Source: Opitutia bacterium | GTDB taxonomy: Bacteria > Verrucomicrobiota > Verrucomicrobiia > Opitutales > T3Sed10-336 | Assembly (NCBI GenBank): GCA_050506795.1 | Contig: JBJHCF010000014.1 | Location: 2,846 to 66,845, forward strand | DNA: 64,000 bases | Direction: 5' to 3' | Part shown: piece after piece, positions 33,800-51,700 of the stretch | How positions within the stretch are numbered: the first letter of the stretch is position 1 | How the letters are laid out: every line of letters begins with the position of its first letter | Position numbers and translations under genes: made by a program | The notes under the pieces: model-generated | The model's input: the letters and a program-made list of their open reading frames with translations, nothing else | What the model was told of the DNA's origin: nothing | Databases searched by the model: none

Positions 33800-34044
33800 A
33801 ATGGCACATTAACTGTGCGTCTGTGCCAAGTCAAGACTGGCACTAATGTAACACCCTTGTCCTGGATGCCGACCATTTCAGTGTTTAAGTGCGTTGGAGG
33901 TGGGTGGTCAAAACTTCGATCAATCCACCGCCGCCCAACATCCTGGCCTGTCGGGGATTCCGTGAGGGAAAGGCTTGCGAAGGAGGTAGGGGACTGGTTT
34001 CCTTGGCATTGGATTTCCAACGCCCGGCCCCGGCCGTCCCAAAA

Positions 34045-36453
34045 ATGCGCACCCAGACCGAAGCCGATACTTGCCGCACGCTTGTCCTGCCCAGGCTTTA
34101 TGCCGCGGGCTGGAACGACGACCAGATTGCCGAGCAGCGTACATTTACGGACGGACGGATTGTGGTCACGGGAAACAAAGCGTGGCGGCGTCCGCGGAAG
34201 CGGGCCGATTACCTCCTTCGGCACCGGCCGGGGCTGCCGCTGGCGGTCATCGAAGCCAAGGCGGCTCACCGTCACCCCTCCGACGGCATCCAACAAGCCA
34301 GGGAGTACGCGGAGATACTCGATCTTAAGTTCGCCTACACCACCAACGGCCGCGAAATCCTCGAATTCGACTTCATCACCGGCAAAGAGACCCTCCTCAA
34401 GGAGTTCCCGACTCCCCGGCAACTCCTCCGCCGCCTCAACGCCTACCTCGGCCTGCCGTCCGCCGAGCAGCAAAAGCGCTTTTTCGACCCGCCGCCTCAC
34501 GCGCCCTCCGCCAAGGAACCGCATTACTACCAGCAAATCGCCGTCAACCGCACCGTCCGGGCCATCCTCCAGGGCCGGCGTCGAACCCTGCTCACCATGG
34601 CCACCGGCACCGGCAAGACCGTTGTCGCCTTCCACATCTGCTGGAAACTCTGGTCCGCCAAGTGGAACGCCAAGAACGACCCCACCCGCAAACCCCGCAT
34701 CCTCTACCTCGCCGACCGAAAGTTCCTGGTCGATGACCCCAAGGACAAAACCTTCGCTCCCTTCGGCGACGCCCGCCACAAGATCGAGGGCGGCGCCGTT
34801 GTCCAAAGCCGCGAACTCTACTTCTCCACCTACCAGTCCCTCGCCCGCGACGAGAATCGCCCCGGCCTCTACAAGGAATTCGCGCGCGACTTCTTCGATC
34901 TCGTGATCGTGGACGAGTGCCATCGCGGCAGCGCCCGCGACGAGTCCAACTGGCGCGAAATCCTCGAATACTTCGAGCCCGCTTACCAACTCGGCATGAC
35001 CGCCACCCCGCTGCGCGAGGAAAACCGCGATACCTACCTCTACTTCGGCAACCCCCTCTACACCTACAGCCTGAAACAAGGCATCGACGACGGATTCCTC
35101 GCTCCCTACCGCGTCCATCGCATCGTCACCGAATGGGACGCCGCCGGCTGGCGCCCCAGCAAGGACGACCTCGACCGCTACGGACGCCGTATCCCCGACG
35201 AACTTTACGGCACCCCCGACTTCGAGAAACGCGTCGCGCTGTTCAAACGCACCGAAGCCATCGCCCATCACCTCACCGCCTTCCTCAAGCGCACCGACCG
35301 CTTCGCCAAGACCATCGTCTTCTGCGTGGACCAGGAACACGCCGCCGAGATGCGCACCCTCCTCAACAACCTCAACGCCGACCTCGTCCGGCAACACCCC
35401 GACTACGTCGCCCGCGTCACCGCCGACGAAGGCGACACCGGCCGGGGCCACATGCAGCGCTTCCAGGATGTGGAAACCCGCAGCCCCGTCATACTCACGA
35501 CGTCGCAACTCCTCACCACCGGCCTCGACGCCCCCACCTGCCGCAACGTCGTCCTCGTGCGCCTCGTCAACTCCATGGTCGAGTTCAAGCAAATCATCGG
35601 CCGCGGCACCCGCGTCCGCGAGGAATACGGGAAACTCTGGTTCAACATCCTCGACTACACCGGCGCCGCCACCCGCAACTTCGCCGACCCGGAATTCGAC
35701 GGCGAGCCCGCCTTCGCCGACCGGGAGGAAATCGACGCCGAAGGCAACACCACCAAAACCGACATCGAACAACACGAACAAACCGCCCCCGACGAGAACG
35801 AACCTCCCGCAGGCGACGACGGCGCTACCCGATACGACGAACCTCCGGATCCATACGGCCCGGACACACCCCCGCCGGAGCGCCGCAAATTCTACTACGA
35901 CGGCGGCCAGGTGGAAATCGCCACCGAACTCGCCTATGAACTCGACCCCGACGGCAAACAACTCCGCGTGATCCAGCTCACCGACTACACCGCCGAAAAG
36001 GTCCGCACCCTCTGCGCCGACCCCGACGAACTCCGCGCCCGCTGGACCGACGCCGCCCAACGCGCCGAAATCATCCAACAACTCGCCGACCGCGGCATCG
36101 ACTTCCAGCAAGTCGCCCTCTAGGCCGGCCAACCTGACGCCGACCCCTTCGACCTCCTCTGCCACCTGGGCTTCAATGCCCCGATCCACACCCGCCGCCA
36201 ACGCGCCGACCGGGTAAAGAAAGACCAAGCCGAATTCTTCGCTCTGTTTGGTGCGGAAGCCCGCGAAATCCTGACCGACCTCCTCGAGAAGTACGCCGCC
36301 GACGGCGAACTATCCTTCTCCCTACCCGACGTCCTCAAAGTCCCGCCGGTTTCCCAACACGGCAACGTGAACGAAATCATCGGCAAATTCGGCAACTCGG
36401 AAAAGCTCCGGGATGCGGTAAATCAACTGCAAGTTCTGCTGTATGCCTCATAG
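34045..36453 (+). pseudogene. hsdR: Type I restriction enzyme R-subunit-like gene (EcoEI/type IB-like: N-terminal PD-(D/E)xK nuclease, ResIII/DEAD helicase, EcoEI_R_C tail) interrupted by an in-frame TAG at 36121-36123
   Basis: ATG 34045 gives 'MRTQTEADTCRTLVLPRLYAAGWNDDQI...ADYLLRHRPGLPLAVIEAKA' (nuclease motif). 'YYQQIAVN', 'MATGTGKT' (Walker A), 'VIVDECHRG' (DExH), 'TSQLLTTGLDAP', 'QIIGRGTR'. After the TAG the same frame continues without a stop to TAG 36451-36453: 'AGQPDADPFDLLCHLGFNAPIHTRRQRADRVKK...VLKVPPVSQHGNVNEIIGKFGNSEKLRDAVNQLQVLLYAS'. This is the conserved EcoEI_R_C-type tail. The stop is codon 693 of 802. Confidence 0.8.
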
Positions 36454-37393: not shown

Positions 37394-37606
37394 ATGAAGA
37401 AAGCGAAAAAGCCATCACTCACACAACAGGCGACACAGGCCATGGCTGATGCCGTCGCCAAGGTAATCGAGGACCACCGCCGCCGGGCAAAGCCGATGGC
37501 TGTTTGGCGTGATGGCAAGGCGGTCTGGATTCCCGCCCCTGAAGCCGGCGCTCTCCGCGAGACGACGGCTCCTTATCGCGTCAAATCCGGCCGCAAAAAA
37601 CCTTAG
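37394..37606 (+). CDS. Small basic hypothetical protein (70 aa)
   Basis: ATG-initiated ORF in an otherwise tight + strand array, 7 nt upstream of the next gene. No recognised domain. Confidence 0.4.
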   Translation: MKKAKKPSLTQQATQAMADAVAKVIEDHRRRAKPMAVWRDGKAVWIPAPEAGALRETTAPYRVKSGRKKP

Positions 37607-37613
37607 ACCGACA

Positions 37614-38066
37614 ATGCCAAACAAACAAAAAACCCAATTTCAACAAGATTTCCCCACCGCTGAAGTGCTTTCGCCGGAGTTGAAAGCTCTGTTGGCTGAC
37701 ACCCGTCCCGTCGAGAGCCTCGATCTCGACGATTTGGCCGCCTCGGTGCGCGATCTTGATCGCGATCCGGAACACGTAGCCGAAACCCTGAAAGGGGTTT
37801 TCGTGGAAGACGTCTTGCGCGCCCTGGAAGAAGAAGGGATGAACAAGAGCCGGCTCGGCAAAACCCGGCAGCAGATCTCCTACCTGCTGAATGAGGAGAA
37901 GCTGAACAATTTCACCATCGAGACCATGGCCGAAATGGCCGCCGCACTCGGACGGCATCTGGTTGTCCGGATGCTTGGGCCGAACGAACGGGTGCGGATC
38001 GAGCCGACCAACTGGCCGACCGCTATCGAGGATTGTGAGCGTGACGCAAAAACCTCCAGGGAGTGA
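37614..38066 (+). CDS. HTH (XRE-like) domain protein with acidic N-terminal extension (150 aa)
   Basis: ORF 37509..38066. ATG 37614 gives 'MPNKQKTQF...'. The C-terminal 'MNKSRLGKTRQQISYLLNEEKLNNFTIETMAEMAAALGRHLVV' is HTH-like, with HigA2-like architecture. Confidence 0.55.
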   Translation: MPNKQKTQFQQDFPTAEVLSPELKALLADTRPVESLDLDDLAASVRDLDRDPEHVAETLKGVFVEDVLRALEEEGMNKSRLGKTRQQISYLLNEEKLNNFTIETMAEMAAALGRHLVVRMLGPNERVRIEPTNWPTAIEDCERDAKTSRE

Positions 38067-38257: not shown

Positions 38258-41200
38258 ATGTCCACCCGCTTCTTTACCAACGCAGGCACGAAGACGCTCT
38301 TCGCCAAATTGGAAGGGGTGTTCCATCACAATCCCGATATTGAGCGATTCGACGCCCTCGTTGGCTACCTGCGCGCCTCCGGCTACTTTGCACTGCGGCC
38401 ACACCTTTCCAAGGTTTCGAAAGTTCGCATCCTCGTTGGGATCGACGTGGATGAAATCGTTTCCGACTACCACAAGCGAGGACTCCTCTTCCTCGCCGAT
38501 CCGACCAAGGCCCTCGAGGATTTTCAGAGCCGTCTCAAGGCCGACATTCAAAACGCCGAATACCGGGCCGATATTGAGGCTGGCATTTTGAGTTTCGTGG
38601 AGGATGTCGTCTCCGGAAAACTGACGATCAAGGCTCACCCCACGAAGCGGTTGCACGCTAAGATCTACATATTTCTTCCCATCGGCTGGTGCGAGCACAA
38701 ACCCGGCGCCGTTATCACGGGCTCATCGAATTTAACCGCCGCCGGACTCGGCGTCGAGGAGCAGTCGCGCAATTACGAGTTCAACGTCCTCCTTCACGAC
38801 TATGACGATGTGAAATTCGCGTCCGACGAGTTCCATAAACTTTGGGAGGAATCTGTCGATGTTCTGCCCAAAACCGTCCTGGCGGTTCGCGATTCCACCT
38901 ACCTTGCAACCACAATCACCCCCTACGAACTCTACTACAAACTTCTCGCCGAATACTTTGGTCCGGCGGTGGATTACGATCCCAACGCCGTCTCAGACCT
39001 TCCCGACGGCTTCAAACGCCTGAGTTACCAAATTGACGCTGTGAACAACGGTTATCGTCTACTTGAAAGGCACAATGGCTTTTTCCTTTCCGATGTCGTC
39101 GGCCTCGGAAAAACCGTCGTGGCGTGTCTCATCGCGCGGAAATTCTTTTTCCATAACGGGTTTCCCGACCATCGCTCCAACACACTCGCGATCTGTCCGC
39201 CTGCGATGGAGGATGATTGGCGTGAAACTAAAGACCGCTTCCGCCTCGACAACTTCGACATCGTTACCAACGGCTCACTACACAAGGTCCGCAATCCGCA
39301 AAAATACGACCTCATCATTATCGACGAGGCCCACAAGTTCCGCAACGACACCGCCGAAGCCTTTGACGATCTCCAGCGCCTCTGTAAATCCGGCACATTG
39401 CGCAAATTGTCCGACGGATCCGTTGCCGAAAAGAAGGTCATCCTCGTCTCGGCTACTCCGCTCAATAACGCTCCGCAAGACATCCGCAACCAGCTTGCCC
39501 TGTTCCAGGATCTGAAGCGCTCCACGCTCAGCGTTGGCAACCTCCAGCACTTCTTCGCGCAGTGTGACCGTGAGTTCCGCGCGGCCAAGAGGGAACCGAA
39601 TATTGAGGCCGCACGCCGAGCGGTGGTCGCTATCTACGAGCGCATCCGCACCAAGGTCATCAGCGAGATCATCGTTCGACGCACCCGCACGGATCTCCAC
39701 GAAAATGAAGACTACCGTCGCGATTTGGAAGAGCAGGGTGTGCAGTTCCCGCAAATCGAGCGGCCCCGGCACATTCTCTACCCGTTGACACCGGAGCTTG
39801 AGGCACTCTACGACCGCACCATCCAGATGCTCACCTCTGGGACCCCGACCAGCCTTACCTATAACCGCTACCGCGCCCTGACATTCCTGCGTGCCGACCT
39901 CAAGAAGAAGTATCACAACGCCGATCGCATCTCCCAGCAACTCGCCACCATCATGCGCACCTTGCTGGTGAAGAGGCTCGATAGCTCCTTCTACGCCTTC
40001 ACCGCCTCCCTACGCCGCTTTCAGGAAGCCACCCGCGTCATGATCGAAATGTTCGAGCGCGGCACCATTTACATCGCCCCCAACCTGCCGGTGAATCAGC
40101 TCATCCTCGAAGGGCGCGAAGAGGATCTTGTTTCCCTGATCGCCGAAAAACGGGATGCCGATCCCACCATCGAGGTTTGCGAACCCGCGGATTTTTCCGA
40201 TGACCTTCTCTCCGGGCTCCGCCTCGATCTTGATCGTGTGGCACCCATCCTCGCCGACTGGGAGGAAGTGGTCGCCTCCAATCAGGATCCCAAGTTCGAC
40301 CTGTTTTTACGCCGTCTGCGCGACGAACTGCTCAACCGCGAAATCAACCGTGACGGCAAACTCGTTGTCTTCTCCGAATCCCGTGAGACGACCGATTACC
40401 TCACCAAGCGCCTTTCCATCGCCGGAATTGACCGCGTCCTCACCGTCGACGCGGGTAACCGTAACGCCAGCCGCGACGATATCCGCGCCAACTTCGACGC
40501 CAATTACCCCGGCAAGCGGCGCAATGACTACGATCTCATCATCTCCACCGAAGTGCTCGCCGAGGGCGTCAACCTGCATCGTTCCAACATTATAGTTAAT
40601 TACGATACCCCGTGGAACTCCACCCGCCTCATGCAGCGCATCGGCCGCGTTAACCGCATCGGTTCGCTCGCGCCCCGAGTCTTCATCTACAACTTCTACC
40701 CGACCGCGCGCGTGGATGACGACATCGAGCTGCGCAAGAAGGCCATCATGAAGCTTCAGGCCTTCCACTCCGCCCTCGGCGAGGATAGCCAAATTTACTC
40801 GACCGATGAAGAAGTGGATACCTTCGGCCTCTTCGACAAGACCCCCGAGGACAACGAGCGCGACGAGCGTCTCACACTCCTCATGGAATTACGCCGCTTC
40901 CGTGCCGAGAATCCGGAGCAGTTCCGCCGCCTCGCGAAACTTCCCGCCCGCTGCCGCGTCGGGCGTGCCGACGCCGTCCGCGCCCGAAGCACTATTGCCT
41001 TCATCCGCAATGCCCACCGCGACGCCTTCTATCGCATTCAGCCCGATGCCGACCCCGAGGAAATCAGCTTTACCGAAGCAGCCATTGAGTTCCGCGCCAC
41101 CCACATCGATGAACCCGCGATTCCCCTGCACGCGGAGCACCATGCGCAGGTCAATACCGCCACCGCCGCTTTCCGCGAGGCGGTCGTCGCCGACACACTC

Positions 41201-41566
41201 GCGCCGCTGGCGGTCGAGGCGAAACAAGGACCCAATGAAAAACGCGCTCGCGACTTTGTGGATGCATTTCTCGCCTTCGACTTCATCAGCGATGAAGAGC
41301 GCCGCCTCATCCGCCTCGCCAAGCTCGCACTAGCCCGCGCCCGCTACGCGAGCCTTCAACGCGAAATCAACAAACTCCAGCGTAACACGAAAAAGGTGAA
41401 GGTGACTCCCGCCGTCCTCGCCGATAAACTTTTCGACATCCTCCGGGAGTATAAGCTGGAGGACATGGAAAATCAGGGTGTTGGCGTGACCGAGGCCATC
41501 CGTCGGGCCGAAACCGAGCCCGAGATCATCCTCACCGAATCCTTCGACCATCTGACCCAAGCATGA
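38258..41566 (+). CDS. PLD-family (HKD) nuclease domain fused to an SNF2/DEAD-type helicase (1102 aa)
   Basis: N-terminal HKD motif 'RLHAKIYIF...ITGSSNLTAAGL' (about 38654-38737). Helicase motifs 'VVGLGKTVVA', 'IIIDEAHKFRN' (about 39323), 'LVSATPLNN', 'STEVLAEGVNLH', 'LMQRIGRVNRIGS'. The stop overlaps the next start (ATGA 41563-41566). Confidence 0.85.
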   Translation: MSTRFFTNAGTKTLFAKLEGVFHHNPDIERFDALVGYLRASGYFALRPHLSKVSKVRILVGIDVDEIVSDYHKRGLLFLADPTKALEDFQSRLKADIQNAEYRADIEAGILSFVEDVVSGKLTIKAHPTKRLHAKIYIFLPIGWCEHKPGAVITGSSNLTAAGLGVEEQSRNYEFNVLLHDYDDVKFASDEFHKLWEESVDVLPKTVLAVRDSTYLATTITPYELYYKLLAEYFGPAVDYDPNAVSDLPDGFKRLSYQIDAVNNGYRLLERHNGFFLSDVVGLGKTVVACLIARKFFFHNGFPDHRSNTLAICPPAMEDDWRETKDRFRLDNFDIVTNGSLHKVRNPQKYDLIIIDEAHKFRNDTAEAFDDLQRLCKSGTLRKLSDGSVAEKKVILVSATPLNNAPQDIRNQLALFQDLKRSTLSVGNLQHFFAQCDREFRAAKREPNIEAARRAVVAIYERIRTKVISEIIVRRTRTDLHENEDYRRDLEEQGVQFPQIERPRHILYPLTPELEALYDRTIQMLTSGTPTSLTYNRYRALTFLRADLKKKYHNADRISQQLATIMRTLLVKRLDSSFYAFTASLRRFQEATRVMIEMFERGTIYIAPNLPVNQLILEGREEDLVSLIAEKRDADPTIEVCEPADFSDDLLSGLRLDLDRVAPILADWEEVVASNQDPKFDLFLRRLRDELLNREINRDGKLVVFSESRETTDYLTKRLSIAGIDRVLTVDAGNRNASRDDIRANFDANYPGKRRNDYDLIISTEVLAEGVNLHRSNIIVNYDTPWNSTRLMQRIGRVNRIGSLAPRVFIYNFYPTARVDDDIELRKKAIMKLQAFHSALGEDSQIYSTDEEVDTFGLFDKTPEDNERDERLTLLMELRRFRAENPEQFRRLAKLPARCRVGRADAVRARSTIAFIRNAHRDAFYRIQPDADPEEISFTEAAIEFRATHIDEPAIPLHAEHHAQVNTATAAFREAVVADTLAPLAVEAKQGPNEKRARDFVDAFLAFDFISDEERRLIRLAKLALARARYASLQREINKLQRNTKKVKVTPAVLADKLFDILREYKLEDMENQGVGVTEAIRRAETEPEIILTESFDHLTQA

Positions 41567-44500
41567 CCCGCGACGAATTCCGCTCCCTCCTTCAATCCCC
41601 CTATGACCGCTCGCGGTGGCTGGCGGCACTCCCGGCCTTCCTGCCCGCGATCGAAATCTTCGCGCGGCCACAATCGCTCGATTTTTCGACCGAGGCGGTC
41701 AGTTCCGCCGTGCAACTCGCCCGCATCCCACTGCCCGACGACCGCAACGTCGCCGTGCTCGAAGTCCGCGTCAGCGGCCAGGTGGATCTGCAACGCAATC
41801 GCGCGGGCCTGCGCAAGCTCGTCGCCCGCTACATCGGCTCGCCTTCGGCGGATGCCGTGCTCGCCTTTTTTGTCGGCGCTTCACCGGACTACCGTTTCTC
41901 CTTTGCCGCCCGCACCAACGCCATCACCACCGACGGCCAACATGAGCAAAAGGATACGGCTCCCCGCCGCTACACCTACCTCTTTGGTCCCGGCCAACCC
42001 TGCCGCACCGCGGTGGAACGCTTTGAACTGCTGCGTTCGCTTGGAAACCGCACGCAACTCGCCGATCTCATCAATGCCTTCCAGGTCGAGCCGCTGTTCA
42101 AAGAGTTTTACCGCGACTACGGAAGAGTTTTTGATGCCGTTGAAAACCATATCCGCCCGTCTCTCACCGGAAAGGAGCCGCTGCGCCTCTTCACCCAGCG
42201 TCTCTTCAACCGTCTCATGTTTCTGGCTTTCGTCGAGCGCAAGGGCTGGTTAAAGATGGGGGAACGCACGGACTACCTTGCCGCGCTGTGGGACGACTAC
42301 ACGAGCAAGCGCCGTACCGCGTCCGCCTCCGCCAACTTTTACGCCGACCGCCTGGTCCCGCTTTTCTTCGAGGGATTGAATCAACCCGACCGCGCCCCCG
42401 GCACCGTCGATCCGCGCTTTGGCGCCGTGCCCTACCTCAACGGCGGACTCTTTGAATACGCCGAAGACGGCACCGACCGCCTGCCCAAACTCCGCGTGCC
42501 CGATGAGGCCATCGCTCTCATCCTCGACCCCGAGACCGGCCTCTTTTCCCGCTATAATTTCACTGTGGTCGAGGACGACCCTTTCGAGAAAACTGTGGCC
42601 GTCGATCCCGAGATGCTCGGCAAGGTTTTTGAGGAACTCGTCACCGGCCGCCATGAACAGGGCAGCTACTACACGCCCAAGCCCATCGTCGCCTTCATGG
42701 CCCGCGCCGCCCTGGTTGAGCACCTTGCCGACCGCTGCCCGGGCGAACCCCGCGCCGCCCTGGAAGCCTTTGTCCACGAGGACGACGCCTCCGGACTCCA
42801 CGATCCCGAGGCCGTGCACCGGGCATTGATCACCATCAAAGTCTGCGATCCCGCCTGTGGTTCCGGCGCCTACCTGCTCGGCATGCTACACGAGCTGCTC
42901 GATCTGCGCACTCGCATCTTCGCCTCACGGCAAAAGGCCGATCCCGAGACCGCCTACCAACGCCGCCTCCAGATCATCGAGCGCAACCTCTACGGGGTTG
43001 ATAAAGACGCCTTCGCCGTCAATATCGCCCGCCTGCGCCTTTGGCTCGCCCTCGCGGTCGAGTTCGAAGGCCCGGTCCCGCCACCCCTGCCCAACCTCGA
43101 TTTCAAAATCGAGATCGGTGACGCCCTCGCCGCCCCCGCGCCCCAGGACATTTTTCAACGCCCGGCGGTCGAAGAGTTTCGCGACAGAAAGGCCGCTTAC
43201 CTCCGCGCCCACGGCGAAGAGAAGGAGAAACTAAAGGCCGAACTCGACCAAATCCGCGCCGATCTCGCCCTCTGGCAGCAGGCCGACCTCTCCGGCCATG
43301 GCTTCAACTGGGCCGTCGAATTCGCCGAAGTGTTTCTACCCGACGCTGAGGAACGCGCCTTGCTCGGCGACCTGCTCGTGCAAGAAGACGCACCGCCCTC
43401 CGTCCGGCCAGGCGGCTTCGACATCATCGTCGCCAATCCGCCCTACGTGCGCATGGAGTTGATCAAGCCGCAAAAACCCATCCTGCGCAAACGCTTCCCC
43501 CAAGTCCACGCCGAGCGGGCCGACCTCTACGTCTATTTCTACGCCCGCGCCCACGAACTCCTCCGGCCCGGCGGTGTCGCCGCCTTCATCTCCTCCAATA
43601 AATGGCTCCGCGCCGGCTACGGCGAAAAACTTCGCCAACATCTGCTCGATGATCAGGCGTTTCGGCTGGTTATGGACTTTGGGGCCTTGCCGGTCTTCCA
43701 ATCCGCGACCGCTTACCCATGTATTTTCGTTTGGCAGAAGCAAGACCGCGGTGAAATTTCAACAGCGTGGGCCAAGGTGACAGATTTGGATCGCTGCTAC
43801 GCTGACGGGGTTCGGCAGCACTTTCTTTCGCTGAATACTCAGGTGCCTGCAGATCAGTTCGGCGTTGGTCGGCCACGCTTGGCTACGGGTGCGACTGCCA
43901 ACCTTAAAGACAAGATGGTGCAGAATGGCCGTCGGTTGGGAGAGGTTTGCAACGGGCTTTTGGGTTGGGGAGTTAAAACGGGCCTAAACGAAGCGTTCAT
44001 CATTGACGAGGCGACACGCAACCGCCTGATCCATGAGACCCCGGATGCAAGTGAGATCATAAAGCCTCTCGTTGCAGGCAACGACGTCAGGCGGTTCGAC
44101 GTCCAATTTCGCCGGAAGTATCTAATCTATGCCTACCGCGGAATAGAAGTTTCTCGGTATCCATCCATCGAGCGGCATTTAAGGCCGTTTCGCTCCTTCA
44201 AGAACGCTAAGGGCCAAACCGTTGGTCTGGATCATCGTGCGACTAAGCAGGAGTGGTATGAATTGCAGCAACCCCAGATGGCCTATAAGAACTACTTCGA
44301 GAGCCGGAAAATCATTTATCCTGACATTGGCAAAGAGCTTCGTTTTGCAATGGACGATGTAGGCTATTACGGTGCGAATACGACCTACTTTTTACCGGTC
44401 GCGGATTGGTTTCTTTGCGGTGTGCTTAACTCGTCTCCAGTTCTGAAATGGATCGAGCTTAGCTTGGCCGACATTCGAGGCGGCTACCTCCGTTTCTTCG

Positions 44501-45594
44501 GCCAACACATGGAACAGCTTCCCATACCCGACGCATCTCCGGCCGACCGCGAGATCGTCGGCAACCTCGCCAAGCAGGCCCAGACCCTCCACGCCCAACG
44601 CCGTGCCCGCAGCGAGCAATTTCTCCGTGCCCTCGGGCTGGATCCGGCCGACAGCACCTCGCGCAACCCGCTGGAGCAGCCGTGGTCCCTTGCGTCCGAC
44701 GACTATGCAAAACGCGTCCGCAAGCTTCAGGGCCGCGCCGCGGACCTAAAACTCTATGAAGCAGCGCGTGACGAAACGGCTGCTCTGACAGAACAGATCG
44801 CCAAGGTCGAGGCCGAGATTGATGCCCGCGTGGCCGCCCTCTACGGCCTCGATGCCGAGGACCAGCGCTGGGCCGCCCAATCCGCCCCCGCCGACGGCAA
44901 GCAAACCCTCTTCTTCGATCTACTCGGCAAACTCAAGGGCCGCCGTGCTCACTTCTCGCTAACGGAAGTTCAGGCGGCCGTCAACGAGGCCGAACTCTCC
45001 CTCAGGGACGACACCCTGAAGGTTTACCTCAGCGAGGCGACCCAACAGGGGCTCATCCACGATGCCGGACGCGGTTGGTATACCCGCCACGCCAAACCGC
45101 TCAAACTGGATCCCAAACCGGTGCAAAAGCTCATTCGCGCGACCAAAAAAGCGCTGCCGCTACTCGACTTTTGCGCCTGGAGCACCGCCCAGCTCAACCC
45201 GTGGATGCAGCACCTCCTCGCCCAGCCCGTCGCCTTTCTCTACGTGCCCCGCGATACCCTCGAATCCGTCGGCGAAACCCTCCGCGCTCAGGGCTGGAAT
45301 GTCGCCGTCAACCCCGGCAAAAACGCCGCCCGCGAAGTGGTGCCCGGCGAGAAAACCGTCGTCCTCCGCCCCAGCCATTCCAAGCAGCCCCCGGATCACA
45401 ATCACCACGCCGCTCCCGAGCAAATCCTCGTCGAATTACTAATCGAAACCGAAGCCCTTGCGCTCATGGATGATTCCGAAGCCCGTGCCGCATGGATCGC
45501 TGCCACCGAAAGTGGTTCTGTGAAAATGGCTGAGATCAAACGATTTGCGGAATTCAAACATCTCCAATGGGACGATATTTGGCCAGCTAACTAA
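41563..45594 (+). CDS. Eco57I/PglX-like gamma-class N6-adenine DNA methyltransferase with TaqI_C-like TRD and a C-terminal AbiEi-antitoxin-like extension (1343 aa)
   Basis: 'LFNRLMFLAFVERKGWL' helical motif. Motif I 'VCDPACGSGAYLLG' (about 42841-42880). Motif IV 'IVANPPYV' (NPPY at 43435-43446). TRD motif 'GVKTGLNEAFIIDE'. 'ARVAALYGLDAEDQRW' is typical of the end of such MTases. A further ~240 aa follow (see the feature at 44875..45594). Confidence 0.85.
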   Translation: MTRDEFRSLLQSPYDRSRWLAALPAFLPAIEIFARPQSLDFSTEAVSSAVQLARIPLPDDRNVAVLEVRVSGQVDLQRNRAGLRKLVARYIGSPSADAVLAFFVGASPDYRFSFAARTNAITTDGQHEQKDTAPRRYTYLFGPGQPCRTAVERFELLRSLGNRTQLADLINAFQVEPLFKEFYRDYGRVFDAVENHIRPSLTGKEPLRLFTQRLFNRLMFLAFVERKGWLKMGERTDYLAALWDDYTSKRRTASASANFYADRLVPLFFEGLNQPDRAPGTVDPRFGAVPYLNGGLFEYAEDGTDRLPKLRVPDEAIALILDPETGLFSRYNFTVVEDDPFEKTVAVDPEMLGKVFEELVTGRHEQGSYYTPKPIVAFMARAALVEHLADRCPGEPRAALEAFVHEDDASGLHDPEAVHRALITIKVCDPACGSGAYLLGMLHELLDLRTRIFASRQKADPETAYQRRLQIIERNLYGVDKDAFAVNIARLRLWLALAVEFEGPVPPPLPNLDFKIEIGDALAAPAPQDIFQRPAVEEFRDRKAAYLRAHGEEKEKLKAELDQIRADLALWQQADLSGHGFNWAVEFAEVFLPDAEERALLGDLLVQEDAPPSVRPGGFDIIVANPPYVRMELIKPQKPILRKRFPQVHAERADLYVYFYARAHELLRPGGVAAFISSNKWLRAGYGEKLRQHLLDDQAFRLVMDFGALPVFQSATAYPCIFVWQKQDRGEISTAWAKVTDLDRCYADGVRQHFLSLNTQVPADQFGVGRPRLATGATANLKDKMVQNGRRLGEVCNGLLGWGVKTGLNEAFIIDEATRNRLIHETPDASEIIKPLVAGNDVRRFDVQFRRKYLIYAYRGIEVSRYPSIERHLRPFRSFKNAKGQTVGLDHRATKQEWYELQQPQMAYKNYFESRKIIYPDIGKELRFAMDDVGYYGANTTYFLPVADWFLCGVLNSSPVLKWIELSLADIRGGYLRFFGQHMEQLPIPDASPADREIVGNLAKQAQTLHAQRRARSEQFLRALGLDPADSTSRNPLEQPWSLASDDYAKRVRKLQGRAADLKLYEAARDETAALTEQIAKVEAEIDARVAALYGLDAEDQRWAAQSAPADGKQTLFFDLLGKLKGRRAHFSLTEVQAAVNEAELSLRDDTLKVYLSEATQQGLIHDAGRGWYTRHAKPLKLDPKPVQKLIRATKKALPLLDFCAWSTAQLNPWMQHLLAQPVAFLYVPRDTLESVGETLRAQGWNVAVNPGKNAAREVVPGEKTVVLRPSHSKQPPDHNHHAAPEQILVELLIETEALALMDDSEARAAWIAATESGSVKMAEIKRFAEFKHLQWDDIWPAN
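44875..45594 (+). other. AbiEi-like (type IV TA antitoxin, wHTH + C-terminal domain) region fused in-frame to the methyltransferase
   Basis: 'FSLTEVQAAVNEAELSLRDDTLKVYLSEATQQGLIHDAGRGWYTR' fits the AbiEi wHTH pattern ending in G-x-[LI]-x(3,4)-RG-x-Y. It is followed by 'AAPEQILVELLIETE', and the gene immediately downstream is AbiEii. Assigned by pattern recognition only. Confidence 0.55.
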
Positions 45595-45641
45595 CGCCAC
45601 AAATTCAAAAAATATGGCATTAGTTAATCGCATGTGAAGTT

Positions 45642-46745
45642 ATGTTCTCGGATCAGATTTACACCCGCGCCTGGGCCGACCGGGAACGCAAGAAGCTGGG
45701 AAATTGCGATCCCGGCTTGCTCGAAAAATGCGTCCGGGCGCTGACCCTGTTGGGGCATCTGGCGGAAAGCGAGCTCCCCTTTATGTTCAAAGGCGGCACC
45801 AGCATCCTACTTCACCTGCCGGAGATCCGCCGCCTCTCGATCGACATCGACATTGTTTCCCCGGCTTCGGATGCCGATCTGAACCGCGTCGTCGCTCAAA
45901 TCGCCCAGACCGCTCCCTTCATTCGCAGCGAAGAAGACATTCGCGGGACTGCTTCGGGACGCGAACTCTTGCCCAACCGCCGTCACTTCAAGTTCTGGTT
46001 CCCCAGCGAACGCGCCCAAACCGGAGAGGACTTCGTCCTGCTCGACGTGGTGCGGGAGGAGCACTGTCCGCATGACACCGTGACCTTGCCTATCCGCACC
46101 TCTTTCCTTGTCCCGGACCGGGAGATCACCGTCACGCTGCCCAGCATTGAGAGCCTGCTCGGCGATAAGCTCACCGCCTTTGCCCCGACGACGACCGGCA
46201 TCCGCCTGCGGAAGCACGGGGGAGAACCCGGCGATGTCATGCAAGTGGCGAAACAACTCTTCGATGTCGGCGTCCTCTTCGAACACGCTACCGATTTTGA
46301 GGCAGTCGCCCGCGCCTACAACGGCGTACAGGCGCAGGAATCCGGCTACCGGGACAATCTCCACACCCGCGAGGCCAGCCTCACCGACACCCTAAACGCC
46401 TGTCTCGGAATCACAGGTGAAGGGGTGCGCTACGCCCCGCCTACCCTCTTTCCCGAAAGGGCTTTGCTCCTCGATGGTTTCCATCGCCTACGGGGACACC
46501 TGACTCGAAGTCCTCCCAACGACAATGCCCGGCGCATTCTCGCCGCCCGCGCCGGTGTCTTGGCCGCGCATTTGCAAGCCAACCGGCTTCTCGACTTCTC
46601 CAGCGCCCGCTACACCCAAAGTCCCGATCAAATCGAGGCCCTGCGCGCTGCCACCCTAAACAACCACCCCCACGGCTGGCTAGACCGCATCAAGCAAACC
46701 AACCCGGAAGCCTACCACTACTGGCACCTCGGCCTGAATCTCTAA
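45642..46745 (+). CDS. abiEii: AbiEii/AbiGii-family nucleotidyltransferase toxin (type IV TA, DUF1814)
   Basis: 'FMFKGGTSILLHLPEIRRLSIDIDIV' matches the AbiEii GGT...R.S.D.D nucleotidyltransferase motif. 'LLGDKLTAF' is the second motif. Starts 48 nt after the MTase stop. Confidence 0.85.
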   Translation: MFSDQIYTRAWADRERKKLGNCDPGLLEKCVRALTLLGHLAESELPFMFKGGTSILLHLPEIRRLSIDIDIVSPASDADLNRVVAQIAQTAPFIRSEEDIRGTASGRELLPNRRHFKFWFPSERAQTGEDFVLLDVVREEHCPHDTVTLPIRTSFLVPDREITVTLPSIESLLGDKLTAFAPTTTGIRLRKHGGEPGDVMQVAKQLFDVGVLFEHATDFEAVARAYNGVQAQESGYRDNLHTREASLTDTLNACLGITGEGVRYAPPTLFPERALLLDGFHRLRGHLTRSPPNDNARRILAARAGVLAAHLQANRLLDFSSARYTQSPDQIEALRAATLNNHPHGWLDRIKQTNPEAYHYWHLGLNL

Positions 46746-46925: not shown

Positions 46926-48167
46926 ATGCTCAATGCATTCATTCATCCACCGTTTCATAACTGTCCTTATTGCGGTGCGCAAAAGACGTTCGGCAGAATC
47001 TCGGTTGGGGACGAGCACTATATCCGTGAATGCAAGTCGTGTGGAAAGCGGAAGCGGATTCGACTTCCTCCACTTAAAAAGCGGGTGATCTACTTGGATC
47101 AGTGGTTTCTCAGTGATTTGACCAAGCTCGACGATTCTAGGTTTGATCGTTCGAAGTTCAGACAACACCAGAGGTTTTTCGAGGAGGCTAACGATCTGCT
47201 GCATGATCTTGTCAGGCTCAAACTGGTGATTTGCCCCGCGAGCCCGATTCATTTCCGCGAATCAATTAGGTCAGCCAAAGTCGCACCAAAACGGGTGCTT
47301 GCCGTTCTAAAAGACCTCTCATGCGGCATCGTCCTTAAGGATCCTGACCAAGTTTTGTGCCATCAAGTTGAGCAGGCTCTAGACTGTTGGATCTCTGGAA
47401 GAGATTGCAACCATGACATCTATGCGCAGGAGATAGCCAAAGGTAAAATCAACTCATGGGCATCCGCTCAACTCAGTCACGACTTCACGCCTTATCGATG
47501 TTGTGAGCAGCAGCGCTTCGAAACCGAAAAAGATAGGCGTGCGGATCGACTGAGGTCCGTCATTAGCCGTTGGAAGCACCAATGCGCTAGAAGCTTCAGC
47601 GAAGACTTTGAAGAGGAGCGTCGAAGCGTCGCAAACACGTTCAGATTGAAGTGGGCAGATTTAGTGAACGATGCCGGAGCTTGCACAACGGATGGGCAGG
47701 AAGATGCGCTTTGGCGTCTTCTTGGGAATGATCGTGCCCACCTATTATCCAGGGCGATCAGAAAGATTGATCGACCTGAGGATCTCCGTGAGTTTTTTCA
47801 GTCGAAGGAGTATTATGGCATCCCGGCGATCAACGTTGAAGCCACGATCTGGGCGACCATTGCTCATATGGTCCAAGCTGGATCGAAAAACCTCGAAGAC
47901 CCCGGCCTCGGCAATGATGTCGCCTTTATCTCACGGTACCTCCCTTACGTTGATGTGCTTTGTGTGGACCGTGCTTTGTTCAATGCGCTTTCGCATCCTC
48001 ACTGTAAATCAGTCATCCGGGGCCGAGAGGTATTCTGCCTCAAAAATGGCAAAGAAAGCTTTCTCAAATTTCTGCGCGATCTTAGGATTTCGCCGGAGGC
48101 CAGGAGAAACGAGAAGCTCTTGGATGAAATCTATTCAACACACGGTCGAGGCCAACACTCAAAATAA
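46926..48167 (+). CDS. Hypothetical protein with N-terminal Zn-ribbon (CPYC...CKSC); possible split PIN-like acidic motifs
   Basis: 413 aa, ATG start, clearly lower GC than the flanks. 'CPYCGAQKTFGRISVGDEHYIRECKSCGK' (46962-47042). 'VIYLDQWFL' and 'NDVAFISRYLPYVDVLCVDRALF' loosely resemble the first and last PIN motifs but lie about 300 aa apart. No family recognised. Confidence 0.6.
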   Translation: MLNAFIHPPFHNCPYCGAQKTFGRISVGDEHYIRECKSCGKRKRIRLPPLKKRVIYLDQWFLSDLTKLDDSRFDRSKFRQHQRFFEEANDLLHDLVRLKLVICPASPIHFRESIRSAKVAPKRVLAVLKDLSCGIVLKDPDQVLCHQVEQALDCWISGRDCNHDIYAQEIAKGKINSWASAQLSHDFTPYRCCEQQRFETEKDRRADRLRSVISRWKHQCARSFSEDFEEERRSVANTFRLKWADLVNDAGACTTDGQEDALWRLLGNDRAHLLSRAIRKIDRPEDLREFFQSKEYYGIPAINVEATIWATIAHMVQAGSKNLEDPGLGNDVAFISRYLPYVDVLCVDRALFNALSHPHCKSVIRGREVFCLKNGKESFLKFLRDLRISPEARRNEKLLDEIYSTHGRGQHSK

Positions 48168-48308
48168 GATTCCGACAACAAACCCTCCGCAGGATCGCCG
48201 TGATTGGCGGGCGGGCGTGATTCTTGTTGAAGGAAGACAGAAGACGTCAGGTAACATGAAAGGGGAAACCTTTGGATTTGGGCTATACTAGAGCCTGTCC
48301 CAAGTTGC

Positions 48309-48326
48309 AATCGACTCTTAATCAGT
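48309..48326 (+). promoter_or_regulatory. 18-nt motif AATCG(C/A)CTCTTAATCAGT, site 2 (upstream of the protease gene)
   Basis: Read directly. 55 nt upstream of ATG 48381. Confidence 0.4.
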
Positions 48327-48380
48327 GATTTTTTTAATATTTTCGTTCAATTGGTACAATTCGAAATTTTAAGGGAATGC

Positions 48381-49370
48381 ATGGGCCTTGCCACTGAAAT
48401 ACTAAGATTCTTCCATATGGACTTTTCCGGACGCTCTAAGGCGCAAACTGTTCGGACTATCGAGGACTTTTCAAAGCTCAAACCCGAATGGCAAGAAACG
48501 CTTGATCTGGGGAGCGTCTTCAGGAATTGTTCGCATTTAGAACAACATGGATACCTTTTTGAAGCCACCTCTCGGCATCCTCACCCTATCCTTGGCCGAT
48601 CCTATGTTTCGCCTAGTTTCGATTATCGGCGTGCAGAGTATGGTGAGTATGATTTCATAGGCCATGGTTTCGGTTTAATCGTCGAAAAGCTCGGCCCAGC
48701 AGTACGCCCTGTCGTTGTGTCAAAGGCAGATGGAGAGGAAGATATTGGAACTTGTTTCCTTCTGGGAAATCAACAAACTATCGTCACCGCCCGTCATGTA
48801 GTGGAGGGAATGGCGCGCATTGTTATCCCTGATCCTGAAGGCAATCCTATAAGAATTCGTCAAATCACAGTTTCCGAAAACCCAAATCTTGACGTAGCTG
48901 TCATTCTTGCTGAATCTATATTGTCTAACCTACCTTGCTTTCGCTGTAGTGAATCGAACATTCTCGATGAGGTTCTTTGCCTTGGTTTTCCTCCGATCCC
49001 GGGATTCGAAGCTACGTTGATTGCGGATCTTGCAACTATTAATTCCGAAATTAGGGCATCGCGTGGTCGTGTGGTCGCATTGAGCGATTCGTATCTGGAC
49101 CGACAGAGTTACATTTTAATAAATGCGCGAGTCAAAGGTGGAAATAGCGGCGGTCCAATCGTTAATCGGCAGGGATATGTAGTGGCTATTCTCGTTCAGG
49201 CTTCCATGAGCTCGGAAGATTTGCATAGCCTTGATTCTCTTGGATATGGTGTCGCTACTCCTAAAGGTGAATGGATTGGGCTTTTTAGGGAATCGGAAAC
49301 AGGTATATGTTCCGGAGTTGATCTGCCATTTGAGAACTTTCCAGATGGTGGATTTCGAACAAAACTTTAG
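48381..49370 (+). CDS. Cytoplasmic trypsin-like (S1/Trypsin_2) serine protease with an unknown ~120-aa N-terminal domain
   Basis: ORF 48351..49370. ATG 48381 is preceded by AAGGGA (spacing 4 nt). Catalytic triad context 'IVTARHVV' (His), 'NLDVAVIL' (Asp), 'KGGNSGGPIV' (Ser, about 49140-49157). No signal peptide. Confidence 0.8.
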   Translation: MGLATEILRFFHMDFSGRSKAQTVRTIEDFSKLKPEWQETLDLGSVFRNCSHLEQHGYLFEATSRHPHPILGRSYVSPSFDYRRAEYGEYDFIGHGFGLIVEKLGPAVRPVVVSKADGEEDIGTCFLLGNQQTIVTARHVVEGMARIVIPDPEGNPIRIRQITVSENPNLDVAVILAESILSNLPCFRCSESNILDEVLCLGFPPIPGFEATLIADLATINSEIRASRGRVVALSDSYLDRQSYILINARVKGGNSGGPIVNRQGYVVAILVQASMSSEDLHSLDSLGYGVATPKGEWIGLFRESETGICSGVDLPFENFPDGGFRTKL

Positions 49371-49380
49371 GGCGGACTGC

Positions 49381-49490
49381 AAGACGTTCAGGTCTCGACC
49401 TTTGACAAGATGCTCATCGGGGCCGAAGGAATAGCTCCGTCAATTTTCGCCGGTGCTGCTCCAAGAATTCCGAATCCGGAACGCAGCGTT
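49381..49490 (+). repeat. ~110-bp repeat, copy A (partner at 52868..52975)
   Basis: Hand alignment. The core 'aattttcgccggtgctgctccaagaattccgaatccggaacgcagcg' versus 'aatttttcccggtgctggtccaagaaatccaaatccggaacaaagcg' has 7 mismatches in 47 positions. The upstream 'aagacgt..gac(c/t)tt(t/c)gacaa(g/a)at(g/t)ctca' part also aligns. Confidence 0.8.
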
Positions 49491-49574
49491 CGGGCAGGGC
49501 AATCCGCGTCCCTTCGAAGTGCAGGAAGTTTTCGTGGAGACTTTCCAGGGTAAGACGGTGACGGACGTTTCGGC

Positions 49575-49991
49575 TTACACGCCCAGATACTGATGAAAAA
49601 CAGTGAAGCGTCGCGGCAGATGATGGACCGTTTCACTGATGCGCTTTTCGCCGGGGACAATTTTGGAATCGACCAGGGTTTTCGGGTTTGTGCACTTCAG
49701 CTTTTCCGCATTTTTTTGAATTGCGGCGGCTATTGAGACGCGCGCTTCGGCAACGTGTCCGTCGAAGACGTATCCCAGCATCCCACCAAACGCGAGTCCG
49801 CGTGCGTACCGGCCCTTCACGAAGCACAGCATTCCCTGTTCGCCGGTCACGTACTCGGACACCAATGAGTGCCAGCCCGAAGGAAACGTGACGTGCAGCC
49901 GTTTGGCTTCCGTGAGAAAGTAGGGCCAGGGTTTCTTCGCGCCGGTCGCAGCCAGAAAGGCAAGGTCTCCTCGTCCCAATGGTTTTTTCAT
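49575..49991 (-). CDS. Hypothetical protein, possibly frameshifted or truncated
   Basis: ORF 49575..50273, but its N-terminal 94 codons run through repeat copy 1. The first ATG outside the repeat is 49991 ('MKKPLGRGDLAFLAATG...'). An adjacent frame continues stop-free to 49414. No domain recognised. Confidence 0.35.
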   Translation of the reverse strand: MKKPLGRGDLAFLAATGAKKPWPYFLTEAKRLHVTFPSGWHSLVSEYVTGEQGMLCFVKGRYARGLAFGGMLGYVFDGHVAEARVSIAAAIQKNAEKLKCTNPKTLVDSKIVPGEKRISETVHHLPRRFTVFHQYLGV

Positions 49992-50087
49992 CGCGTTGCG
50001 CCGGTCGTAGATGGGGATTTCACGTAACAGCTCGATCGGGCGTCTGCGAAATTCGAGAAGGCCGTTGGGGTCAGCCCTTAAATTAAA

Positions 50088-50352
50088 AGTTAGGGGTACA
50101 AGCAAAGGACATCGGTTACACTTCAATATGGCAATTATGCCATGGAAGAAGAGTGTTCCGAGTGAAACGACAAGACTGGGTTTGCAGAGAACTGGACCAC
50201 CGACGGACGAAAAAGAACGATTTGTCGTACTGGTCGGGAGGCATTTTGTTTGCCCACGAAAGGCACGAAACACACGAAAGGGGAGAGGGAGGGCATTGGT
50301 CTGAGCGAAAGTGGTGGTTCATTTTTCGTGTGTTTCGTGGGCAAATTTTCCT
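50088..50352 (+). repeat. Hairpin-containing intergenic repeat family, copy 1 (~265 bp)
   Basis: Shares '(a)gttaggggtacaa', 'ggacatcggttac', 'tgccatggaagaag', 'ggaccaccga(c/t)ggacgaaaaagaacgatt', 'tttgcccac(g/a)aaag(g/a)c(a/g)cgaa(a/t)cacacgaaag' and 'ttcgtgtgtttcgtggg(c)caa(a/t)t(t/c)ttcc' with copies 2 and 3. Internal inverted repeat tttgcccacgaaa...cacacgaaa / tttcgtgtgtttcgtgggcaaa (50248-50279 / 50323-50345). Confidence 0.85.
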
Positions 50353-50551
50353 GAGATCAGGAAGTCGGGCTTAAAACACCGAGCTGCGTGGCGGAGTGGT
50401 GACGTGGTGGCACCGCCTTTCTTCGGACGGCGGAGGGTGGCGGGACGTGGGAGCTAAGAGTGCCGCGCAGACGAATGTGCGATCTCGGATCAGCCAGATT
50501 TTATAAAATGACTCTTTACATTCAGACGTCTAATTGTAAAATACGGATCTC

Positions 50552-51700
50552 ATGATTGCACGACCTTTCTGGGAAAAGCGCATTCGCGAGGCGTGGGAGC
50601 GGGCGCCGATCGCATGGCTCGCGGGGGTACGTCGGGTTGGAAAGACGACGCTCGCGAAGTTCTTTCGCGATGGCGAGTACCTGAACTGTGATCTGGCCCG
50701 CAATCGGGAGCGGTTGTCGGATCCGGAATTCTTCTTTCAGCAATGCGACGCCGGATTGATCGTGCTGGATGAAGTTCATAAGTTGGAGGATCCAAGCGAA
50801 GTTCTGAAAATCGCAGCGGATGAGTTTCCGGAAAAGCGTATCCTTGCCACTGGTTCTTCAACCTTGGCCGCCACTTCAAAATTCAGAGACAGTTTGACCG
50901 GGCGAAAACGCGTGGTCTTTCTACCCCCCGTGCTGGCGTCGGAATTGAAGGCATTCGGAAAGGCGTCGCTGGAGGATCGCCTCTTGTGGGGCGGTTTGCC
51001 ACCGTGCCTTCTCGGCTCCGGCTCCGATCCCGAGTTTTACAGTGAATGGTTCGACTCCTATTTTGCCAGGGATGTCCAGGAATTGTTCCGTGTCGGCAAG
51101 CGTACGGAATTTCTGAAGCTCACGGAATTATTGTTGCGCAACAATGGAGGACTGGCGGACATCACGACACTGGCAAAGCATAGCGGTCTCACCCGCCCCA
51201 CGGTGATGAACTACCTCGATATACTGGAAATCACCCATGTGATACACCGTTTGCGTCCGTTCCATAACGGCGGGAAGCGTGAACTGCTCGCCCGACCCAA
51301 AATTTACGGCTTCGACACCGGTTTCGTGTGCTACACCCGCGCGTGGTCCGAACTGCGCCCGGAGGACCGTGGAGGCCTTTTGGAAAATCTCGTACTCGAT
51401 CTCCTCAAGGCCGCCCTCCCCACGACGCCCCCGCTCTATTGGAGGGACAAACAGGACCGTGAAATCGATTTCGTCCTGCCCGGCAAACGCGACCACACGA
51501 TCGCTGTCGAGTGCAAATGGAGCAGCACAAAGTTCAATCCTTCAAACCTCGAGGTCTTTCGGCGCTATTACCCCAAAGGGGAAAATCTGGTCGTCACCGC
51601 AGGACCCGGAGACTCGGAGAGGCGACGTTTCGGTCAACTTGAAGCAACCGTCGTACCGGTTTATCGGCTGTTGGATTGGATGGACGCGCGCAAGAGTTAG
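50552..51700 (+). CDS. AAA-type ATPase with DUF4143 C-terminal domain
   Basis: Walker A 'GVRRVGKTTLA', Walker B 'LIVLDEVH'. The C-terminal 'YWRDKQDREIDFVL...AVECKWS' restriction-endonuclease-like fold is typical of the AAA_14/DUF4143 family. Confidence 0.85.
   Translation: MIARPFWEKRIREAWERAPIAWLAGVRRVGKTTLAKFFRDGEYLNCDLARNRERLSDPEFFFQQCDAGLIVLDEVHKLEDPSEVLKIAADEFPEKRILATGSSTLAATSKFRDSLTGRKRVVFLPPVLASELKAFGKASLEDRLLWGGLPPCLLGSGSDPEFYSEWFDSYFARDVQELFRVGKRTEFLKLTELLLRNNGGLADITTLAKHSGLTRPTVMNYLDILEITHVIHRLRPFHNGGKRELLARPKIYGFDTGFVCYTRAWSELRPEDRGGLLENLVLDLLKAALPTTPPLYWRDKQDREIDFVLPGKRDHTIAVECKWSSTKFNPSNLEVFRRYYPKGENLVVTAGPGDSERRRFGQLEATVVPVYRLLDWMDARKS

Follow-up and report, generated by a model that had tools for sequence, protein, structure and literature searches.

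Can the antitoxin of an abortive-infection toxin be built into a DNA methyltransferase, and, if so, does the toxin then answer to the state of that enzyme? These questions are raised by a stretch of 64,000 nucleotides (nt) from an Opitutia bacterium (Verrucomicrobiota; contig JBJHCF010000014.1, positions 2,846 to 66,845, analysed as a whole and referred to here as the window), in which the open reading frame (ORF) of a methyltransferase of 1343 amino acids (aa; 41563-45594, + strand) continues well past the point where such enzymes usually end and is followed directly by the gene for an AbiEii-type toxin. An earlier note, made from the sequence without database searches, had proposed that an AbiEi-type antitoxin was captured here by the methyltransferase. 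The locus is probably best described as a restriction-modification-like methyltransferase that bears an AbiEi-like antitoxin tail of the family DUF6577 and that forms, together with the cognate AbiEii toxin, an ordinary AbiE-type (Type IV/VII) module.

The 1343-aa ORF is a single frame without an internal stop. Following ALYGLDAEDQRW (residues 1092-1103, nt 44836-44871), with which the terminal helix of the methyltransferase core ends, 240 further residues precede the TAA stop at 45592-45594, in agreement with the in-frame extension of about 240 aa originally described; the chance of 239 stop-free codons at the local G+C content is approximately 3e-4. The earlier placement of the usual C-terminus was also right, because orthologues that lack the extension end exactly there, terminating at '...ALYGL*' or '...ALYGLDAG*'. 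Likewise, the strings that had been quoted were found, two in the tail (GLIHDAGRGWYTR at 45049-45087 and AAPEQILVELLIETE at 45409-45453) and two, FKGGTS and RRLSIDIDI, in the next gene. Core and tail are joined by a linker of 11 residues, AAQSAPADGKQ (44872-44904, + strand), which among homologues varies in frame in both length and sequence. Residues 1105-1108, which lie inside it and are the first four of the 239 aa that were modelled with AlphaFold, have predicted local distance difference test (pLDDT) values below 50.

An identical 1343-aa protein is recorded at NCBI (P0085), and 66 of the 120 best homologues of the methyltransferase (54-80% identical, 1338-1398 aa) bear PF20217, the Pfam family for DUF6577, on the same polypeptide; NCBI has named one of these 'DUF6577 family protein'. 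A scan for relatives of the tail with one genome per species gave 172 stretches, of which 80 loci were kept; together with loci fetched earlier, these amounted to 82 distinct related loci, and in 37 of them the tail and the methyltransferase core share the same stop-to-stop frame. The phyla represented among the loci are the Verrucomicrobiota (including Kiritimatiellia), Acidobacteriota, Bacteroidota, Desulfobacterota, and Pseudomonadota; no relatives were found in the viral contigs scanned. Several short database entries consist of a methyltransferase C-terminus, linker, and tail in one frame, cut at contig ends. One locus, L004, was considered as a natural two-gene ancestor and rejected: its tail frame extends back through the methyltransferase C-terminus, and what splits it is a shift of frame within the methyltransferase itself, at about residue 994. 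In the 1343-aa gene we have a translational fusion that is genuine, widely conserved, and maintained in evolution. The missed stop or frameshift against which the earlier note had cautioned is not supported, and the capture of the antitoxin was not a single event; the architecture is widespread, and the tree of the tail intermingles fused with free-standing forms.

The tail is predicted to have two domains. The N-terminal domain (44944-45090, + strand), which carries the near-invariant motif DAGRGWY, is predicted by AlphaFold2 and Foldseek to be winged-helix-like, and it is followed by an alpha/beta domain at the C-terminal end (45112-45579, + strand) that covers positions 1-187 of the 204 in the DUF6577 profile. 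As a whole, the 229 aa past the linker match PF20217 with an E value of 5e-24 (85.5 bits against a cut-off of 27.8), and this profile is matched by 63 of 63 aligned homologues of the tail. PADLOC's context-derived 'AbiEi' profiles match it at 6.6e-25 (PDLC02235, profile positions 13-223 of 240) and 4.1e-22. With the AlphaFold2 model of the tail (pLDDT 92.9) as query, Foldseek returned S. agalactiae AbiEi (6Y8Q; E = 9.8e-4, probability 0.97, 236 aligned columns) as the best match in the PDB and M. tuberculosis Rv2827c (1ZEL) as the second best, the two being the solved AbiEi-family antitoxins; winged-helix domains were also returned for the N-terminal part. The family is small, with 357 matches at E <= 1e-3 among 1.84 billion representative proteins, and a search with only the tail as query retrieved mostly proteins that stand free. 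These free-standing homologues, for which a search had been proposed, are 235-255 aa long and up to 77% identical to the tail, and each is encoded directly 5' of an AbiEii gene. The invariant residues of both domains are equally conserved in the fused and free-standing forms. The tail is a full copy of a protein that stands free elsewhere, directly 5' of the same toxin family. Given the fold matches and the strict synteny with AbiEii, the identification of the tail as an AbiEi-like antitoxin of a distinct family, DUF6577, complete with both of its predicted domains, is well supported.

The next gene encodes a 367-aa AbiEii/MenT-type (DUF1814) nucleotidyltransferase toxin (45642-46745, + strand), as had been recognized. 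It matches PF08843 at 1e-22 (81.5 bits; cut-off 22.5) and, over its full length, the AbiEii profile of PADLOC at 1.8e-81. Searches of its sequence and profile against PDB chains gave no match; its AlphaFold2 model (pLDDT 93.2) finds MenT3/TglT Rv1045 as the best PDB matches with Foldseek (probability 1.00, E = 3e-6). The motifs FKGGTS (45786-45803) and RRLSIDIDI (45828-45854) are present, and across 64 related toxins little or no variation is seen in FKGGT, RRLSxDxD, DKLxAF, and KQLFD; of these toxins, 63 cover the columns of S66, D68, and D70 and agree at all three, the remaining one being gapped there. Judged from these motifs, the catalytic core is intact. With other members of the family, binding of the AbiEi/MenA antitoxin induces auto-phosphorylation of the toxin at an equivalent Thr/Ser, thereby inactivating it (PMC11375011; bioRxiv 10.64898/2026.01.19.700257; PMC7205606). 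By analogy, Ser66 (codon 45837-45839), which occupies the position of T65 in AbiEii and S78 in MenT3, is the putative phospho-acceptor.

Only 47 nt separate the fusion from the toxin gene, and no antitoxin ORF is present apart from the fusion; the 180 nt 3' of the toxin hold ORFs of no more than 46 aa without a family match, and the earlier statement that a separate antitoxin gene is lacking was correct. That tail and toxin belong together is apparent from the related loci. An AbiEii gene lies immediately 3' of the tail family in nearly all of 84 loci, and DUF6577 and AbiEii also occur as an autonomous two-gene unit apart from any methyltransferase. The two have, moreover, been lost together. 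At L005 (11297-11660; protein P0116, 76% identical), the last residues of the tail, 'WRINQRH', an intact copy of the inverted repeat described below, and the last 20 or so residues of the toxin remain past the methyltransferase stop, while at L006 (9100-9800, the same as L037; protein P0140) the tail is frameshifted and the toxin gone. Both had been candidates for an ancestral unfused state and were rejected as such, being remnants of secondary deletion or decay. A tree of the tail built by neighbour joining intersperses the fused forms thoroughly with the free-standing ones, and hence the linkage has been made or broken many times. It follows from such frequent switching that a covalent linkage is not needed for the module to work. 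Some free-standing copies still lie 3' of a related helicase-methyltransferase pair (L046, L055, and L056).

A conserved inverted repeat (45588-45626) lies between the two coding regions, with arms TAACTAACGCCA (45588-45599) and TGGCATTAGTTA (45615-45626) around a 15-nt A/T-rich spacer. Of these, the first (5') arm contains the TAA stop of the fusion, and between the end of the second (3') arm and the ATG of the toxin gene are 15 nt. A repeat is found at the equivalent place in most of the fused and free-standing loci (L001-L090), and its arms co-vary between clades, reading TTAACYAACGCCA / TGGCGTTAGTTAA in the Verrucomicrobiota, CCCATTAACTCCGCA / TGCGGAGTTAATGGG in the Desulfuromonadales, and GATCAACTAATGTCA / TGACAATAGTTGATC in a metagenome-assembled genome of the Bacteroidota (L062). 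At some loci the TAA of the 5' arm has become CAA; the C-terminus then reads '..INQRH...' and translation stops at the TAA in the 3' arm. At the junctions of L091 and L092, which carry a second kind of fusion considered below, no repeat of the typical kind was seen. In the window, these two half-sites are the only copies; matches 5' of the helicase gene that begins the operon were at the level of chance. Upstream of the free-standing loci, no shared inverted repeats were found. As a separate observation, L010 has a second perfect copy of the operator-like repeat (TTAACCAACGCCA / inverted; 13977-14017) approximately 800 base pairs (bp) 3' of the toxin, between a small Xre_MbcA_ParS_C-like gene and a gene encoding HTH_3 and Peptidase_M78 domains.

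The AbiEi of S. agalactiae binds two 23-bp inverted repeats and thus represses its own operon (PMC3985639). Because of this precedent, and because the recognition-helix region of the tail family varies in step with the type of repeat, a co-variation that is confounded by phylogeny, the repeat is read as a candidate operator of the winged helix that would control expression of the toxin; we regard the chances of this as evenly balanced. The other reading, that of an RNA hairpin between the two cistrons, is ranked below a DNA operator since no Rfam family matches the repeat, the window has no further half-site, the repeat folds no better as RNA than shuffled sequence (z = -1.35 for the window), and among the mismatches between arms A-C outnumber G-T by 42 to 15.

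The methyltransferase core comprises residues 1-1103 (41563-44871, + strand); its parts are a helical spacer resembling that of MmeI, an N6-adenine methyltransferase domain of the gamma class, a target-recognition domain (TaqI_C), and the terminal helix. Pfam matches are to Eco57I (5e-37, 128 bits), MmeI_Mtase (49 bits), and TaqI_C (55 bits), all of them above the cut-offs, as well as to N6_Mtase; motif I, DPACGSGAYL, is encoded at 42847-42876 and motif IV, NPPY, at 43435-43446. Judged from sequence, the core is an Eco57I/MmeI-like gamma-class N6-adenine DNA methyltransferase with its own recognition domain. The PADLOC profile REase_MTase_IIG matches it at 3.7e-94. The Type IIG profiles of PADLOC align only from approximately residue 170 onward, and neither MmeI_N nor any other nuclease profile matched residues 1-170; on these profile matches, the core is not classed as a single-chain bifunctional Type IIG enzyme of the MmeI family, for which an N-terminal nuclease is expected. 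Within the same 170 residues is the string 'PDD...LEVRV' (residues 56-70; 41728-41772), which we take to resemble a PD-(D/E)XK motif in degenerate form, located where MmeI has its nuclease domain. If it is a remnant of that kind, the enzyme would descend from an ancestor of Type IIG that exchanged its own nuclease for that of a partner protein.

That partner is presumed to be the product of the gene immediately upstream, a 1102-aa protein (38258-41566, + strand) in which a phospholipase D (PLD, or HKD) nuclease is combined with an SNF2 helicase (Pfam PLDc_2, SNF2-rel_dom, and Helicase_C; PADLOC 'HKD+Snf2' at 1e-42) and which would serve the methyltransferase as its restriction or translocase component. 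The stop codon of the helicase gene overlaps the ATG of the methyltransferase (ATGA), and the PLD-SNF2 gene is kept immediately 5' of the methyltransferase in L005, L006, L008, L010, and most of the fused loci. The order helicase, methyltransferase::DUF6577, AbiEii is common to L003, L008/L009, L010, and the operon in the window.

Association of the module with restriction-modification is not confined to this enzyme. Among the free-standing cassettes are ones located directly 3' of a Type I system with a YgjP-like gene (L001 and L039), of an MmeI-type enzyme (L061), of an HSDR_N_2-methyltransferase (L019), of a RAMA gene (L050), and of a Piwi gene (L052). In addition, an exhaustive protein search uncovered a second class of fusion, in which an HsdS-like Methylase_S protein of approximately 700 aa carries DUF6577 at its C-terminus (P0378, P0387, P0365, P0412, P0345, P0409, and P0430; L091 8001-10124 and L092 8001-10091). 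The order of that operon is [HSDR_N_2 + N6-methyltransferase][S::DUF6577][AbiEii]. Two kinds of restriction-modification proteins that bear DNA specificity have independently acquired DUF6577 by fusion, and by virtue of the second fusion a functional coupling to specificity subunits stays plausible.

Taken as an ordinary AbiE-type module on a methyltransferase, the locus would function as follows. Together, the methyltransferase and the PLD-SNF2 helicase-nuclease would make up a system resembling restriction-modification. If AbiEi/AbiEii and MenA3/MenT3 are taken as models, AbiEii would be bound by the C-terminal domain of the tail and thereby inactivated, probably through an auto-phosphorylation of Ser66 in RRLSIDID that this domain induces, while the winged helix, again by analogy, would bind the inverted repeat just 5' of the toxin start and limit the expression of the toxin. 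Being held on a short, flexible linker, the module most likely acts as an antitoxin of the ordinary kind. The fusion would tie synthesis, amount, and turnover of the antitoxin to those of the methyltransferase; accordingly, the toxin would be tolerated only while full-length methyltransferase is made. The pair would then constitute a second-line growth-arrest (abortive-infection) layer, or a stabilising one, that is wired to restriction-modification.

Several observations weigh against this account. Neither the tail nor any of its 63 homologues matched AbiEi_1, AbiEi_3, AbiEi_4, or DUF6088 at E values up to 10, and the membership in one of these families that the earlier note had anticipated was replaced by that in DUF6577; a profile of the tail family likewise gave no sequence match to PDB chains, the solved AbiEi-family structures included. 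The link between DUF6577 and AbiEi rests instead on fold, PADLOC profiles, and synteny, and here the structural matches are themselves marginal (E of about 1e-3, template modelling (TM) scores of 0.29-0.34, root-mean-square deviation above 15 A). We take the low TM scores to mean that the domains match but are oriented differently to one another, and we read the predicted fold as support, not proof. The repeat lies between antitoxin and toxin and not, as in S. agalactiae abiE, 5' of the antitoxin, so its role as an operator is an extrapolation. Finally, internal initiation or cleavage may yield the tail as a product of its own.

Of the other explanations, the one that survives best is that the tethered antitoxin acts as a guard, neutralizing AbiEii only while the methyltransferase or specificity subunit is in its normal state. 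Binding of a DNA-mimicking anti-restriction protein, degradation of the enzyme, or its titration by incoming DNA that is unmodified would remove repression at the repeat as well as neutralization of the toxin, and failed restriction would be converted into abortive infection. A precedent is provided by PrrC-EcoprrI and Ronin (RonA-HsdMS), where a toxic effector encoded beside modification and specificity genes is held in check by the complexes of those proteins and freed by anti-restriction proteins (bioRxiv 10.1101/2023.04.06.535777). In PrrC and Ronin the toxin is held non-covalently by HsdMS and there is no antitoxin domain, whereas the antitoxin module here is covalently appended and the toxin is a nucleotidyltransferase. 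The proposal gains in attraction from these precedents combined with the independent fusions of DUF6577 to two proteins that bear DNA specificity, the TaqI_C methyltransferase and the HsdS-like subunit, and also from the tendency of free-standing cassettes to adjoin the 3' side of restriction-modification or defence genes. It loses attraction because of the frequent switching between fused and free states, by which covalent coupling is seen to be dispensable, and because the module, on a short and flexible-looking linker and with its own invariant residues preserved, has the look of an autonomous unit. Furthermore, some cassettes adjoin unrelated genes (L045 and L089), a toxin neutralized by phosphorylation would not be freed, once modified, by sequestering the antitoxin, and the conformational coupling that is invoked is conjectural. 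On balance, we consider a guard function unlikely, though still deserving of attention.

Much less credible is the view that the tail is a DNA-binding extension for regulation or recognition, comparable to the winged helix of a controller protein, and the AbiEii-like gene an unrelated neighbour or accessory enzyme. The N-terminal part of the tail is predicted to be a winged helix, the DUF6577 family is formally uncharacterised, and methyltransferases with appended helix-turn-helix (HTH) regulators are known, M.SsoII being an example. This view does not account for the occurrence of the DUF6577-AbiEii unit away from methyltransferases or for the joint loss of tail and toxin; the half-site is present only beside the toxin gene and not at the 5' end of the operon, close orthologues of the methyltransferase exist without the tail, and it is the full-length module, C-terminal domain included, that aligns to AbiEi-family antitoxins. 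That the window truly holds two genes, with a stop or frameshift erased by an error of sequencing or assembly, is scarcely credible at all: the annotation of L004 as two genes and the shorter database fragments that might speak for it are explained by the frameshift within that methyltransferase and by contig ends, and the continuous frame recurs in 66 independent protein clusters and in 37 loci from different studies and assemblers.

The closest known toxin-antitoxin systems are AbiE and its homologues. AbiE, MenA3-MenT3 (TakA-TglT), and Rv2827c-MenT4 share with the present locus the DUF1814 toxin core with its GG[ST] and R-x-[ST]-x-D-x-D motifs. In these systems, as is predicted here, the toxin comes after a protein made up of a winged helix at the N-terminus and a further domain at the C-terminus, and the antitoxin has an inverted repeat associated with it. 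The locus differs in that its antitoxin belongs to DUF6577 and forms the C-terminal part of a 1343-aa methyltransferase instead of a small separate protein, and in that the repeat is situated between the antitoxin and toxin coding regions, where it spans the antitoxin stop, instead of in a promoter 5' of the antitoxin.

With respect to the restriction-modification part, an HKD/PLD-Swi2/Snf2 helicase paired with an Eco57I/PglX-like N6-adenine methyltransferase is shared with the Type-2 BREX-related ('BR') systems and, in the form of DrmD/DrmMI, with class 1 DISARM (PMC12839542). However, the DrmD score was 161 bits against a cut-off of 610, the PglX models of NCBIfam scored no more than 89 bits against cut-offs of at least 400, and the NCBIfam phospholipase-D anti-phage score was far below its cut-off. 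A DUF499 ATPase and DUF3780 were not found among the window ORFs scanned, and no DrmA, DrmB, or DrmC model was among the listed PADLOC matches of the seven locus proteins scanned. On these profile scores, the locus is not placed within class 1 DISARM or the Type-2 BREX-related systems. The main text of the paper on the latter describes HEPN, Schlafen, and other backup effectors, and AbiE and DUF1814 are absent from it (PMC12839542). The Type IIG enzymes of the MmeI family have the MmeI-type helical spacer, methyltransferase domain, and C-terminal recognition domain in common with the core; unlike in that family, MmeI_N was not detected here and the nuclease is supplied by the separate PLD-helicase gene. 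A true member of the MmeI family is the enzyme directly 5' of the free-standing DUF6577-AbiEii cassette in L061.

The surroundings of the operon in the window can be summarized briefly. A 185-aa ORF (37509-38066, + strand) directly 5' of the helicase gene has weak similarity to HTH_3 and HTH_37 (E of about 0.01) and, on that basis, may encode an operon regulator; the slot differs among related loci, being occupied by a UPF0150-like gene in L005 and by a Fic gene in L008. Further 5' is an HsdR-like ORF of 744 aa (33889-36123, + strand) with HSDR_N, ResIII, SWI2_SNF2, Helicase_C, and a partial EcoEI_R_C. No HsdM or HsdS was found among the window ORFs examined, and the HsdR-like protein may therefore be a Type I restriction subunit that is orphaned or truncated. 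On the opposite strand, a longer ORF (33796-36228) is without a family match and probably spurious. On the 3' side of the toxin (46926-51700), the G+C content falls to 46-53%, and the genes look like more defence-island cargo: they encode a protein of 413 aa that begins with a zinc ribbon and belongs to no family, a trypsin-like protease of 339 aa (Trypsin_2) that weakly matches the RT-protease, LmuA, and HamA models of PADLOC, a 232-aa ORF without a match, and an AAA_14/DUF4143 ATPase.

The earlier note knew of no described fusion between a methyltransferase and AbiEi, and literature searches did indeed find no account of one, nor any description of DUF6577 or of a fusion of an antitoxin to a methyltransferase or HsdS. 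The databases nonetheless hold many unannotated examples of the fusion, and the profiles of PADLOC already recognize the domain as AbiEi. The fusion is a recurrent and hitherto undescribed wiring between two layers of defence; it is not a new principle. In practical terms, it assigns a likely function, that of an AbiEi-like antitoxin, to Pfam DUF6577, it draws attention to a candidate operator that is unusually placed between the antitoxin and toxin genes, and it serves as a warning for annotation, given that these 'methyltransferases' of 1340 aa and 'HsdS' proteins of approximately 700 aa hide a component of a toxin-antitoxin system.

Toxin-antitoxin and restriction-modification systems are usually seen as separate layers that are merely co-located in islands. 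Here, the antitoxin is physically part of the modification or specificity protein, in many lineages and with two fusion partners. Should the antitoxin prove to act as a guard, the tRNA-modifying toxin AbiEii would report on the state of a DNA-recognition subunit, and a classical toxin-antitoxin pair would have given rise to a covalent version of the principle known from PrrC and Ronin. The fusions offer a testable system with which to ask how abortive-infection toxins are coupled to first-line defences, and whether the supply of an antitoxin can read out the integrity of restriction-modification.

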